Virus record (IMG/VR): IMGVR_UViG_2751185961_000002
Strand: one strand, 5' to 3'
DNA: 6,455 nt
Source of the DNA: a virus
Taxonomy: Duplodnaviria; Heunggongvirae; Uroviricota; Caudoviricetes
Made by a program: the position numbers and the translations under genes. Shown one piece after another: positions 937-6,126 of this stretch; positions within the stretch are counted from its first letter, which is position 1, and every line of letters starts with the position of its first letter. The notes beneath the pieces are model-generated. The model saw nothing but the letters and a program-made list of their open reading frames with translations. It had not been told where the DNA came from and did not search any database.

Positions 937-1242
937 TTAAGCATGAGGCGAAATTTCTGCCGGGCGGTATTTTGTTGAGAGATGAGATACGTCAACTTCT
1001 CTTTCCGCTTTTTCGAGGCTCCATGCCGTCTGGAGACGAATCCATGAAGACGGAGTTCCACCCAGGACAGCAGCGAGACGAACAGCCATTTCAGGAGATA
1101 TTGTCGCATTACCTGAAACCAGTCGCTGAACAGTGGAAGGCGCGACATCAAGCGCTCTTGCCAGTTCCCTGATTCCAATATTCTGATCTTCCAGAATATC
1201 AGCAATAATTTCTCCGGGATGAGGGGGGTTAAACATCGCCAT
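937..1242 (-). CDS. higA: HigA-family antitoxin (HTH/XRE DNA-binding), 101 aa
   Basis: Sequence ...NPPHPGEIIADILEDQNIGIRELARALDVAPSTVQRLVSGNATISPEMAVRLAAVLGGTPSSWIRLQTAWSLEKAE matches the HigA addiction-module antidote signature (HPGE...helix-turn-helix...WLRLQ). Start ATG (1242-1240) overlaps the stop of the upstream toxin gene by 1 nt (TAATG). Confidence 0.85.
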   Translation of the reverse strand: MAMFNPPHPGEIIADILEDQNIGIRELARALDVAPSTVQRLVSGNATISPEMAVRLAAVLGGTPSSWIRLQTAWSLEKAEREVDVSHLSTKYRPAEISPHA

Positions 1243-1520
1243 TAGTGGTAATCCTCGTAGTTAAGAATATAAGCATCGCCGTTCCGAAACTCGAATGTGA
1301 TTCTCCAGTTACCGGAGACGGTGACAGACCATGTATCGGATCTGTCCCCCTGCAACTGGTGCAGCCTGTACCCGGCAAGGTTAATATCATCAATGATTTC
1401 AGCTTGATCTATTACCTGAAGGCGCGTTCTCAGGCGTTTAACGTGATTGGGATTTATGCCTGATGCATTTCCTGTTTCAAAGAAACGTTGAAGTCCTTTG
1501 TGTTTCCAGCTTTTTATCAT
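1242..1520 (-). CDS. higB: HigB-family toxin (RelE/ParE superfamily mRNA interferase, 'plasmid maintenance system killer'), 92 aa
   Basis: Start chosen at the internal ATG (1520-1518, MIKSWKHKGLQRFFETG...) with AGGAAA SD about 6 nt upstream. C-terminus ...GDRSDTWSVTVSGNWRITFEFRNGDAYILNYEDYH is the classic HigB motif (cf. Rts1 HigB). Toxin-first order and 1-nt overlap with higA are typical of higBA. Confidence 0.85.
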   Translation of the reverse strand: MIKSWKHKGLQRFFETGNASGINPNHVKRLRTRLQVIDQAEIIDDINLAGYRLHQLQGDRSDTWSVTVSGNWRITFEFRNGDAYILNYEDYH

Positions 1521-1613: not shown

Positions 1614-1676
1614 CACCGCACGCCAGCAAAATCTGGCGTCGGGATTAGGAACCCCGGATATTCAACCGCGACAGAC

Positions 1677-1699
1677 ACACGCCGCGAGCGTGTTTTTTA
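1677..1699 (+). terminator. Rho-independent terminator (tR2-like position, or terminator of a short leader RNA)
   Basis: Stem ACACGC (1677-1682) / GCGTGT (1688-1693), loop CGCGA, followed by TTTTTTATT. Confidence 0.55.
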
Positions 1700-1863
1700 T
1701 TGTCGTATGCACACGCACATCTGAATTATGGTGGGGCGTATGGGGCAGCCGAAAGGCTGGCCGGTTGGTTGATCCGGTAGTTCCTAACCCTGTACGTCTC
1801 GCCACCCGATGATTAGGAACCTGACGGTGGTGAATGAAAAACTCATCAACCGGAGGCGTCACT

Positions 1864-4058: not shown

Positions 4059-4293
4059 TATTCAGCAGGTGCCTGAACGCATGGCTTTATTCAGGTCGTC
4101 TGGAAAAGCGCATGAGCAGCGTAATAGCGGAGTTCATGGCGAAGAGTATATGAACAGATTATTCGAATGCTATATGAGACTGAAGCACGGAGATCGCTAT
4201 GACCTGACATGTGATGCTGACGGCTTCTACTGCCGTGAAGTTGTGAAACGAATGTTTGAAGTGTGGTGTCATTGTAAAGGATGGGGGCTGTGA
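4051..4293 (+). CDS. Small Cys-rich protein, 80 aa, unknown function; possibly a Q-related zinc-binding module
   Basis: ATG 4051 overlaps the ninH stop (ATGCGTGA); MRDIQQVPER...CYMRLKHGDRYDLTCDADGFYCREVVKRMFEVWCHCKGWGL. The N-terminus MRDIQxVxER resembles, from memory only, the start of the short 933W/DLP12-type Q antiterminators. Unverified. Confidence 0.5.
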   Translation: MRDIQQVPERMALFRSSGKAHEQRNSGVHGEEYMNRLFECYMRLKHGDRYDLTCDADGFYCREVVKRMFEVWCHCKGWGL

Positions 4294-4907
4294 TGCGGCT
4301 AACCCCAGTATTCGGCATGGTTAACTTTATTAATGATGCTCATTTCCGCCGCATATGGAGGCATCCGAAGAAAATCATTAACTCTCGTCAGAAAGCATGG
4401 GTTCACTACATGCTACAGGTATGGGGAAATGTTAACGCTGGTGATGATTCTCCTTGTGGTGCAATTAACGTTATTGGGCGACTGATGATTCGCAGTCAGT
4501 GGAGCGATGACAAAGCTAAGCAGATTGAGTCTGTTGTCATGCGTCTGTATGAAGAAGACGGACTACGTGGAGATGAACTCCATCAGAAAGCCCGAGAACT
4601 GGTCATCCCTCAGTCATCGGCAGGTAATATCATTGCTCTCGCCAAAGAATCCGATGATGCTGCTTTCGTTGAACGTGTGATGGTTGAGACCTTTCATCGT
4701 GAAAGCCCTGTCCGTGATGTAGCTATTAGGCGATATTGCAATCGCGACAGCACGCAAGATATCGCCAGGATGATTTCTCAGATAACAGGAGTTGATATTC
4801 AGTATTGCCGGAGGCGGGTCGTGTGGTGCGAGAGGGTCCTTGATTCAGAAATGTTTTATGCAATGAAGCGAGAATTGGAGAAAGAACTTCTAGTGATTGC
4901 TGGATGA
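4293..4907 (+). CDS. 204-aa protein in the Q (late antiterminator) position; function assigned by synteny only
   Basis: ATG 4293 overlaps the upstream TGA (TGATG) and follows a GGGGG SD-like run. Last gene before the candidate pR'-tR' unit, which is where Q sits in lambdoid phages. The sequence does not resemble lambda Q as I recall it, so the family is unassigned. Confidence 0.5.
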   Translation: MRLTPVFGMVNFINDAHFRRIWRHPKKIINSRQKAWVHYMLQVWGNVNAGDDSPCGAINVIGRLMIRSQWSDDKAKQIESVVMRLYEEDGLRGDELHQKARELVIPQSSAGNIIALAKESDDAAFVERVMVETFHRESPVRDVAIRRYCNRDSTQDIARMISQITGVDIQYCRRRVVWCERVLDSEMFYAMKRELEKELLVIAG

Positions 4908-5171: not shown

Positions 5172-5298
5172 TGTGGTGAAGCTCAATGGCGAGCTAGCAG
5201 ACAGGCGACTGTGAAAATACTAGTCATGTAGCGGATCGCCGCGCGTATTGTAATCGGCAGCGCACCGATGGGAGCTGGTTCGATTCCGGCCGCCACAA
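5172..5298 (+). ncRNA. tRNA-like element in the late leader (atypical; probably a degenerate tRNA or tRNA-derived structure, not a canonical tRNA)
   Basis: Canonical T-arm GCTGG-TTCGATT-CCGGC (5274-5290); perfect 5-bp anticodon-like stem ATCGG/CCGAT (5253-5257 / 5265-5269) with 7-nt loop CAGCGCA (no U33); acceptor-like pairing TGTAGCG (5227-5233) / CGCCACA (5291-5297) with one mismatch; no D-arm; no encoded CCA. Enclosed by a longer stem GTTGTGGTG (5170-5178) / CGCCACAAT (5291-5299). Confidence 0.35.
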
Positions 5299-5417
5299 TC
5301 CAAACTGAGCCGTAGCCTCTGGGTGTCCTGAATTCATCAGTGATAGTTACGCTGCGGCCTTCTACATACGATTTTTGTGAAAAGCGGGTGGCAAGAGGCT
5401 GCGAAATTTTTAAATAC

Positions 5418-5637
5418 CTCACAATTCCACAGCTTGATGATTGTCTGGCTGCCGGAGAATTTGTTAAAAATTACATCGCGTGGTGAATCCCCCTCAGCGG
5501 CGGGGCATCTGGCAAAGTGTATGATCCAGCGAACATGCAAATTCAGTAGCCAGGCTGAATTTACCGGGAGGCACCTGGCACCATGCGACAGACAGAAATT
5601 AGGCTATACTTCAGCCCCTCTCCGGAGGGGCTTTTCT
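5418..5637 (+). repeat. Late-leader repeat unit A (about 220 nt), ending in an intrinsic terminator
   Basis: Shares with unit C the blocks CTCACAATTC, ATTGTCTGGC, TTTGTTAAAAA, TGGTGAATCCCC...GGGGCAT, ACCGGGAGGCACC.GGCACCATGC and the terminator CAGCCCCTCTCCGGAGGGGCTTT. Terminator stem GCCCCTC (5614-5620) / GAGGGGC (5625-5631), loop TCCG, then TTTTCT. Confidence 0.6.
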
Positions 5638-5689
5638 GTGCAGGATGTATCACAGTTTCCTGAATTCTGAGTACTGTCCTGTTACTCAG

Positions 5690-5849
5690 GGTGCTATATT
5701 TTCTGACGTGATGAAAGTCTGCCGGAAGGCGGAACGTATCGGAAATGACCCAGTAGAGAAAACGTTGACTCAGATACCGATGCTGAGTTACCGGGAAACC
5801 GGCATCACATGACCGCTATCCTTCCAGGCTCGCTCCGGCGGGCCTTTTT
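5690..5849 (+). repeat. Late-leader repeat unit B (diverged or partial copy), ending in an intrinsic terminator
   Basis: CTGAGTTACCGGGAAACCGGCATCACATGACC aligns with CTGAATTTACCGGGAGGCACCTGGCACCATGCGAC of unit A. Terminator stem GGCTCGC (5827-5833) / GCGGGCC (5838-5844), same TCCG loop, then TTTTT. The 5' boundary is approximate. Confidence 0.45.
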
Positions 5850-5886
5850 ACTGCAGAAAACAGTTTTCCCGTAAAATGCCACGTTA

Positions 5887-6119
5887 CTCACAATTCAGGC
5901 TGGCGATTATTGTCTGGCCAGCGGGAAGTTTGTTAAAAAAATATGGCATGGTGAATCCCCTGTGCGGAGGGGCATATCAGCGACAGGTGTTTGGTCACAC
6001 CCCTTATCCTTTCTGGTGCGGGTTCAGGTGCTGATACTGAACTCACCGGGAGGCACCCGGCACCATGCATGAACGGTACATAGCGCTACTCTCCAGCCCC
6101 TCTCCGGAGGGGCTTTCTT
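5887..6119 (+). repeat. Late-leader repeat unit C (about 233 nt), ending in an intrinsic terminator
   Basis: Same conserved blocks as unit A. Terminator stem GCCCCTC (6096-6102) / GAGGGGC (6107-6113), loop TCCG, then TTTCTT. Confidence 0.6.
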
Positions 6120-6126
6120 GTTGGAT

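Follow-up and report, generated by a model that had tools for sequence, protein, structure and literature searches.

A repeated motif upstream of a prophage ORF6N gene very probably marks a P1 immI-type (c4/IsrK) antisense-RNA module for the antirepressor

Three copies of the 8-mer TTAGGAAC, two direct and one inverted, lie upstream of an ORF6N gene in the 6,455-nt window (the whole stretch of viral DNA analyzed here). We conclude that they are, in all likelihood, the a1, a', and a2 elements of a P1 immI-type (c4/IsrK) antisense-RNA module for a prophage antirepressor. The 340 nt from the minus-strand higB gene to the ORF6N gene contain three co-linear plus-strand Rfam matches, and for two of these Rfam families (isrK and C4) the module scores above the curated threshold. 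The motif triple is a real, non-random feature: with both strands counted, the window has three copies where 0.13 would be expected, and three copies were not reached in any of 200 shuffles that preserved dinucleotides. It is nevertheless an ordinary feature, belonging to a known kind of system. The circuit is already known as textbook-type phage immunity (P1 c4, 1990) and in its lambdoid form (Gifsy-1 IsrK, 2016), and little is added to it by the present locus.

The extended direct motif GATTAGGAACC is exact at 1643-1653 and 1811-1821, as had been claimed in an earlier analysis made from the letters of the stretch (the sequence-only reading). The inverted copy that this reading placed at 1780-1789 is real, GTTCCTAACC being the reverse complement of GGTTAGGAAC, but it is slightly shorter than was stated, the perfect core common to all copies being 8 nt (TTAGGAAC, or GTTCCTAA at 1780-1787). 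Compared with copy 1, the inverted copy can be extended to an 11-nt match with one mismatch. A stem within 1780-1820 is possible as well, with 8 perfect base pairs between 1780-1787 and 1813-1820 and 25 nt separating the arms, versus the 9 bp and about 22 nt proposed. On the plus strand, a1 is copy 1 (TTAGGAAC, 1645-1652; extended motif GATTAGGAACC, 1643-1653), a' is the inverted copy (GUUCCUAA, 1780-1787), and a2 is copy 3 (TTAGGAAC, 1813-1820; extended 1811-1821). The a' element is complementary to both a1 and a2, over 8 bp each.

Upstream of all three copies there is a plus-strand sigma-70 promoter at 1584-1613 (TTGACA, 18 nt, TATATT) with 11 out of 12 consensus matches, and the TTGAC...TATATT arrangement is conserved 5' of the leader in related loci. 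The predicted transcription start is A1620, based on the IsrK +1 position in Gifsy-1 (Hershko-Shalev et al., 2016, PMC4825925) and on the start of the Rfam isrK model. An IsrK-like leader sRNA follows at 1620-1698 on the plus strand, with a score of 68.9 bits against the model of the isrK Hfq-binding RNA (RF01394; gathering threshold 50), its own promoter, and a strong intrinsic terminator predicted at 1677-1698 (+). The predicted fold of the leader has a first hairpin at 1620-1639 and a second one at 1640-1656 (both +). The a1 element forms the loop of hairpin 2, in agreement with the earlier proposal that copy 1 sits in the hairpin loop of a small RNA, and the RNA in question is a small terminated one. 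This position is equivalent to the annotated a1 of P1 and to G28/G31 of Gifsy-1 IsrK. Complementarity of the middle hairpin to a downstream processed RNA, a hallmark of the isrK family, is found here as the perfect 8-bp a1-a' helix. The c4-a1b1 model (RF03163) gives a full-length match at 1607-1660 (44.5 bits, E = 3e-10) that stays below its gathering threshold of 46.7, whereas the isrK model, which spans the same two hairpins, passes its own. The leader is the equivalent of the P1 a1b1 leader and of P4 seqA.

Further downstream, a C4-type antisense RNA is found at 1724-1809 (+), where Rfam C4 (RF01695) is matched over the full length of the model (1-87) with 67.5 bits against a gathering threshold of 45. 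Alignment to the annotated P1 c4 (a 77-nt misc_RNA) predicts a mature C4 of 1730-1806, 77 nt in length. The minimum free energy (MFE) of the C4 region is -43.5 kcal/mol (z = -3.96), and the MFE structure agrees with the model in having a long closing stem and two internal hairpins. Across 15 homologues, P1, N15, and P4 among them, 16 of the 27 pairs of the consensus fold show two-sided compensatory changes. As is characteristic of the C4 family, two unpaired segments, b' as the loop of a hairpin and a' toward the 3' side, each have an upstream and a downstream partner, and the downstream target extends into the ribosome binding site of the first gene of an anti-immunity or antirepressor operon, here the antirepressor gene. 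The a' element lies between C4 hairpin 2 and the closing stem, and a2 lies a few nt past the predicted C4 3' end, the same position as the annotated a2 site in P1. A tRNA scan of the window found no tRNA. The 5' end of P1 c4 is reportedly made by RNase P.

These two RNAs give the pairings suggested by the sequence-only reading a definite meaning. Its proposed contact between copy 1 and the 1780-1788 site is the a1-a' interaction; the G28-C162 and G31-C159 pairs that were validated by compensatory mutation in Gifsy-1 (PMC4825925) are a1-a' pairs when mapped on the Gifsy-1 sequence, that is, pairs between motif copy 1 and the inverted copy. Likewise, the proposed pairing of the inverted copy with copy 3 is the counterpart of a'-a2, the antisense-target interaction that the P1 record annotates. 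As for the suggested hairpin or RNA switch, RNA pairing is indeed what the repeats provide for, but it is mainly an intermolecular (or precursor-level) contact and no simple riboswitch-like stem, because the inverted copy sits inside a separate processed antisense RNA of the 77-nt type. At the precursor level, a2 is predicted to be in the loop of an alternative hairpin of the unprocessed transcript (1799-1806 with 1826-1833), and in the predicted MFE structure of the whole read-through RNA (1620-1880) a1 and b1 are paired with a' and b' in cis. Precursor folding probably contributes to the regulation, judging from these predicted structures.

A second triple of complementary elements, all on the plus strand, accompanies the first. 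The b' element (UUGGUUGAU, 1765-1773) is the loop of the second C4 hairpin; b1 (UCAACCG, 1662-1668) is in the single-stranded stretch from leader hairpin 2 to the terminator; b2 (AUCAACCGG, 1845-1853) overlaps the Shine-Dalgarno sequence GGAGG (1852-1856), which is 7 nt ahead of the ATG at 1864. The b'-b1 helix has 7 bp with one G.U pair and the b'-b2 helix has 9 bp with two G.U pairs. The b2 element of P1 similarly covers a ribosome binding site, that of icd. Both this second triple and the separate processed antisense RNA that holds the inverted copy had been overlooked in the sequence-only reading. A repeat of CGGTTGTTTGA (1577-1587, overlapping the -35 element) and CGGTTGGTTGA (1762-1772, in b') was considered as a fourth site and rejected as a chance occurrence: the upstream copy has the same sense as b' and is unconserved elsewhere.

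The gene downstream of the module (1864-2535, +) encodes an antirepressor-like protein with ORF6N (Pfam, 1e-19) and P22_AR_C (2e-07) domains. The product is 60% identical to Gifsy-1 STM2616/AnrP over 149 aa, and its homologues carry antirepressor annotation. The start at ATG 1864, already assumed in the earlier reading, is backed by conservation of the N-terminus and by RefSeq, which annotates the equivalent start at an identical locus. Another in-frame ATG, at 1834, use of which would put a2 beside a ribosome binding site, was discarded as the gene start: it is missing from Gifsy-1 and other loci, and the RefSeq start is equivalent to 1864. Upstream of the gene, the ORF that begins at the conserved AUG 1728 has only 14 codons, with its stop at 1770-1772, 92 nt short of the antirepressor AUG. 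Across 12 related loci the same ORF varies from 8 to 64 codons or is fused in frame to the antirepressor gene, and among these 12 loci the AUGA overlap of the upstream ORF with the antirepressor start is found only in Gifsy-1; it is absent here. The ORF published as 'orf45' is unconserved in this comparison, and the comparative data call its coding role into question.

Matches to the segment 1560-1900 occur in 275 phage records and in 741 of the 5426 complete E. coli genomes, with many Stx phages among them. Phage GER2 has the segment at 100% identity, and the isrK locus of Gifsy-1 matches it at 82%. In all 12 loci that were fetched, an isrK match is followed by a C4 match, and the next gene is of antirepressor type in most of them. 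Over the 12 loci there are at least eight versions of the a element (TTAGGAAC, TTGGCGT, TTAGGAC, TTCGAAC, TTAGCAC, TTGGAAC, GTAGGAA, and TCGCAG), and the b' loop sequence differs in all 12. Within each locus, a1 is the same as a2 and both are the reverse complement of a', with 6-8 perfect pairs, while b1 and b2 match b' over 6-12 pairs. The b2 element is on the Shine-Dalgarno sequence in nearly all loci examined.

A permutation test was used to evaluate this covariation, in which the duplex energies of the cognate pairs in the 12 loci were compared with those of 20000 random partner re-pairings. Energies were used instead of a covariation count for the intermolecular pairs because a whole-module MAFFT alignment put a2 and b2 out of register. 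The windows were limited to homologous positions; they replaced the whole leader and downstream regions, from which the duplex energies were noisy, with short oligonucleotides finding other partners in stems. For a'-a1 the cognate mean was -9.1 kcal/mol versus a permuted mean of -3.9 kcal/mol, and for a'-a2 it was -9.1 versus -4.5 kcal/mol. The corresponding means were -10.5 versus -4.9 kcal/mol for b'-b1 and -11.3 versus -6.7 kcal/mol for b'-b2. No re-pairing out of 20000 was as good as the cognate set for any of the four contacts, and in the a'-a1 comparison the cognate was the top partner in 12 out of 12 loci. A comparison of the longest helices with G.U pairs allowed separated cognate from non-cognate partners poorly, because the a variants differ by 1-2 nt only. 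Several of the cognate base pairs are wobbles between a G of the target and a U of C4, and these fit only plus-strand RNA. As a positive control, the same search on P1 recovered the annotated a1 and a2 exactly and b1 and b2 within 1-2 nt; on N15 and P4 it gave the identical a/b layout.

With the identity of the RNAs, their architecture, their complementarities, and the covariation established at this locus, the functional roles rest on homology with the known systems and would be as follows. From one constitutive-looking promoter (1584-1613), transcripts would mostly end at the terminator and yield a leader sRNA of roughly 79 nt (1620-1698), with a1 displayed in a hairpin loop and b1 just downstream. 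The read-through transcript would hold the tRNA-like, stably folded C4 RNA (about 1730-1806), which would be excised from the precursor and expose b' as the loop of a hairpin and a' as unpaired sequence. The mRNA would present a2 directly after C4 and b2 on the antirepressor Shine-Dalgarno sequence, with the same sequences as a1 and b1. Free C4 could pair with a2 and b2, mask the ribosome binding site, and keep the antirepressor off. The leader sRNA, offering the same two sites, would compete for C4, and this competition would account for the activation of antirepressor translation by additional leader RNA. The amount of leader sRNA relative to C4 would in this way set the synthesis of the antirepressor and the move of the prophage toward induction. 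The exact a and b sequences may serve as a specificity code against cross-regulation of co-resident prophages, as in P1/P7 heteroimmunity. We infer that C4 blocks translation at b2 here and that the leader is its competitor. By analogy with the characterized systems, we hold the translation block and the competitor step to be probable on balance, and the output step at this locus could differ, given the termination mode of P4.

The closest known layout is that of P1, whose record (NC_005856) annotates a1, b1, a 77-nt c4 RNA, a2, and b2. In P1, a1 forms the loop of leader hairpin 2 and is followed by the single-stranded b1; within c4, the loop of hairpin 2 holds b', and the unpaired segment ahead of the closing stem holds a'; a2 lies 3 nt past c4 and b2 over the icd ribosome binding site. 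The immI regions of P1 and P7 (c4, then icd-ant1/2) have the same order and placement of the six elements and the same C4 fold as the present locus, and in both cases the regulated function is an antirepressor. In P1/P7, it is the sequence differences in the recognition elements that give immunity specificity. According to the summary of Citron and Schuster (1990) given in PMC12197685, the translation of ant in P1 is blocked by c4, which pairs around the ribosome binding site. The differences from P1 are in the surrounding parts. P1 has icd, whereas none is found here and b2 is directly on the antirepressor's own Shine-Dalgarno sequence; the antirepressor family (ORF6N/P22_AR_C) differs from that of P1; and no C1 operator is evident at the promoter here, unlike in P1. 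The isrK model, which gives 68.9 bits here along with a strong leader terminator, gives only 35.1 bits for P1.

In satellite phage P4, which has a CI RNA with seqA, seqB, and seqC, an isrK-like leader and a C4-family RNA are both found by Rfam, and the a/b triples have the same layout, with b2 at GGAGG. The RNA is the primary immunity factor of P4 and is described as acting on the replication operon, whereas here the antirepressor gene is downstream. The immA region of N15, a linear plasmid-prophage, contains a leader whose Rho-independent terminator is annotated, together with a C4-family RNA and the a/b triples, and it controls an anti-immunity operon, the downstream genes of which (icd, antA, antB) differ from those here. 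As cited in PMC4488713, a small processed CA RNA from N15 immA controls icd-antA-antB (Ravin et al., 1999). The sar/ant system of P22 also has a small RNA controlling an antirepressor gene, and the C-terminal domain of the P22 antirepressor is common to both. P22 sar, a genuine cis-antisense RNA, is made from the opposite strand, whereas all components here are on one strand and pair via short dispersed complementarities.

The isrK-orf45/STnc1160-anrP unit of Gifsy-1 (Salmonella) is a direct homologue, 82% identical over 1584-1900, with the same promoter, a terminated leader sRNA, a C4-like processed RNA, and the 60%-identical antirepressor. The recognition elements differ: the a element is TTAGGAAC here versus TTGGCGT in Gifsy-1, and b' is GGUUGAU here versus GGUGAU. 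So does the position of the module, which is upstream of ninB and behind a divergent higBA pair here versus downstream of Q in Gifsy-1, and a 45-codon ORF with AUGA overlap in Gifsy-1 stands against 14 codons here. In Gifsy-1 the isrK promoter drives the entire unit, and the IsrK terminator stops most transcripts. The RNA that reads through is not translated, and downstream of IsrK lies a processed RNA of about 80 nt, STnc1160 (PMC4825925). The authors likened the system to P4 seqA/CI/seqC, and a downstream target at the anrP ribosome site was left undiscussed (PMC4825925). We tentatively suggest, as a possibility that we rate below an even chance, that in lambdoid IsrK-type modules, including Gifsy-1, the leader is a built-in decoy of C4, the true target is a2/b2, and 'orf45' is mostly non-coding. 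If the decoy reading were true, the published model, with its activation of orf45 translation by IsrK, would need revision, and the module would be a three-RNA toggle made from one transcript, with the addition of a precursor-level hairpin (1799-1806/1826-1833) showing a2 in its loop.

Some of the Gifsy-1 data do not fit the simple competitor model. The a1 mutants in cis (G28A and G31A) raised, rather than lowered, basal antirepressor translation, and IsrK toxicity was enhanced instead of reduced when STnc1160 was co-expressed constitutively (PMC4825925). In the a1+a' double mutants, repression was poorly restored, with 224 and 327 units compared to 4 units in the wild type (PMC4825925); we note that such poor restoration is expected if a' must match a2 too.

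The main alternative to the translation block concerns the output. The same RNAs and pairings, with C4 acting on nascent a1/b1 and a2/b2, could mainly cause premature transcription termination, either at the leader terminator or in a Rho-dependent manner before the antirepressor gene. P4 and N15 both carry an isrK-like leader, a C4 RNA, and a/b triples in the same layout, and the leader here closes with a strong intrinsic terminator. N15 may act in a manner similar to P4. The CI RNA of P4 is described as causing premature transcription termination via seqA and seqC in the summary given in PMC4825925, and in Gifsy-1, IsrK supplied in trans raised a transcriptional fusion 8-fold (PMC4825925). 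The same IsrK in trans, however, raised anrP translation 139-fold, far above the transcriptional effect (PMC4825925), and b2 lies on the Shine-Dalgarno sequence in nearly every locus, a placement that typifies translational occlusion of the P1 kind. On this evidence, termination as the principal output appears rather unlikely. The translation block and transcription termination are not mutually exclusive, being mutually compatible outputs of the same pairings. In P1, the translation block leads secondarily to Rho-dependent termination.

The published Gifsy-1 model is another alternative to the translation block at b2. It states that the leader pairs with the C4/'orf45' region and converts the read-through transcript from structure A, which is inactive, into the active structure B, in which the orf45 ribosome binding site is freed and orf45 translation is coupled to that of the antirepressor via the overlapping AUGA; a2 would have no specific role. 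The model was built on genetic and biochemical experiments made directly in the 82%-identical Gifsy-1 locus, and its authors attributed activation to alternative folds of the long transcript and to upstream ORF translation, not to titration of a repressor RNA (PMC4825925). The predicted MFE structure of the read-through RNA here (1620-1880) resembles structure A, and AUG 1728 is conserved. On the other hand, AUGA coupling is impossible at the present locus because the 14-codon ORF from AUG 1728 ends 92 nt before the antirepressor AUG, and Gifsy-1 is alone among the 12 loci in having the overlap. By the authors' own account, the nucleotide sequence of the orf45 region is conserved and the amino-acid sequence variable (PMC4825925). 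The model also leaves unexplained the covariation of a2/b2 with a'/b' in every locus and the poor repression in the a1+a' double mutants (224 and 327 versus 4 units). As an account of the present module we consider it improbable.

The sequence-only reading had also offered the three copies as DNA operators for a phage regulator, possibly the ORF6N/Roi-like protein itself. In favor of this are the location of the repeats, ahead of the ORF6N gene, and the fact that domains of the ORF6N/KilA-N type are DNA-binding folds. This explanation is unsupported and most improbable, since the copies are in unpaired parts of transcribed, Rfam-recognized RNAs, past the transcription start and downstream of the promoter rather than around it; the a and b triples covary as RNA pairs, the G.U pairs of which would be A-C mismatches on the opposite strand; and a varies widely between loci with nearly identical ORF6N N-termini (the window and ArgO145 share the first 40 ORF6N residues, and their a elements are TTAGGAAC versus TTCGAAC).

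With the c4/IsrK-type module as the preferred reading of the three copies, an RNA switch that would gate antirepressor-driven prophage induction, and potentially the induction of Shiga-toxin phages too, is unannotated in RefSeq at an identical locus. The RefSeq record of that E. coli locus annotates neither RNA (the ORF6N protein only), whereas the GenBank record of phage F039 annotates both. In the literature on E. coli Stx phages, only passing citations of IsrK were found for the module. A modest side result concerns the published Gifsy-1 model, the orf45 of which is unconserved and in which a third partner, a2/b2, was overlooked. The variable a and b elements look like an addressing code, with which co-resident prophages could run the same circuit without cross-talk. 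Strain JNE122137 has three such modules in two prophages, with the a elements TTCGAAC, TTGCTAC, and TTGGCGT, which is consistent with a heteroimmunity-type code as in P1/P7.

Identical copies of the block made up of the higBA toxin-antitoxin pair, the IsrK-like leader sRNA, the C4 antisense RNA and the ORF6N antirepressor gene occur in the E. coli G1/2 chromosome and in phage GER2, where RefSeq has no ncRNA annotated. The prophage surroundings of this identical block differ from those in the window: it lies near the integrase end and adjoins a BRO-N protein and a methyltransferase interrupted by IS150, whereas in the window the same arrangement is followed by ninB through rusA. Since the identical block is found in different prophage neighborhoods, we concluded that it behaves as a mobile cassette. 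In the window the higB/higA pair (937-1520, minus strand; Pfam HigB-like toxin, 4e-22, and HTH antitoxin) is located immediately upstream of the leader-C4-ORF6N module and is divergent to it; phage ArgO145 likewise carries a toxin-antitoxin pair in this position (585-1096 of the fetched locus). The higB/higA promoter region (1530-1573) holds the direct repeats CTGTTGCGTTACGCG and CTGTTGTGTAATGCG, which may serve as a HigA operator. The spacer of the module promoter includes CGGGATTA (1601-1609), which duplicates the 5' half of leader hairpin 2 (1639-1647). Positions 1598-1608 and the 3' side of the same hairpin (1650-1660) make up an inverted repeat of 11 nt (91%). The G+C-rich CCGGGG/CGGGG spacer directly 5' of the -10 is kept in most of the related loci.

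In the C4 closing stem, the 3' strand, TCGCCACC (1799-1806), is complementary to GGTGGTGA (1826-1833), which lies directly 3' of a2, the a-type specificity element at 1813-1820. Judged from this complementarity, the two segments would form an alternative hairpin with a2 in its loop, and this hairpin and the C4 closing stem would be mutually exclusive. Of 15 loci, 14 retain the pairing, and F039, Lahn2, Kp48ST307/N15, and P4 show compensatory changes in it; just 5 bp of it is present in P1. The C4 5' end includes the conserved AUG of "orf45", the small upstream ORF in the published Gifsy-1 model. When the window and loci L002-L012 were compared, the "orf45" reading frame was not conserved: its equivalent in the window (1728-1772) has 14 codons, those in the remaining loci have 8 to 64 codons or form an in-frame fusion with the antirepressor gene, and the AUGA overlap is found in Gifsy-1 only.

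Strain JNE122137 carries co-resident modules, two in one prophage (L017) and a further one in another (L018). Their a elements differ (TTCGAAC, TTGCTAC, and TTGGCGT), and two of the modules have the same b specificity, GGTTTC/GAAACC. This suggests that a single differing element may suffice for insulation, or that some cross-talk occurs.

In the distal part of the window, a tRNA-like T-arm sequence, GGTTCGATTCCGG, was found at about 5225-5300. No tRNA gene was detected there by ARAGORN, and the sole Rfam match nearby is to the tmRNA model (13.5 bits, 5269-5339). The T-arm sequence may be what is left of a tRNA gene at the site that tRNA genes occupy in Stx phages. Further downstream, 3' of a 208-aa ORF without a Pfam match (4281-4907), the sRNA STnc100 (Rfam RF02076) is present in tandem as two strongly matching full copies (5448-5641, 139.9 bits; 5917-6125, 129.8 bits) and one weakly matching degenerate copy (5677-5852, 30 bits).
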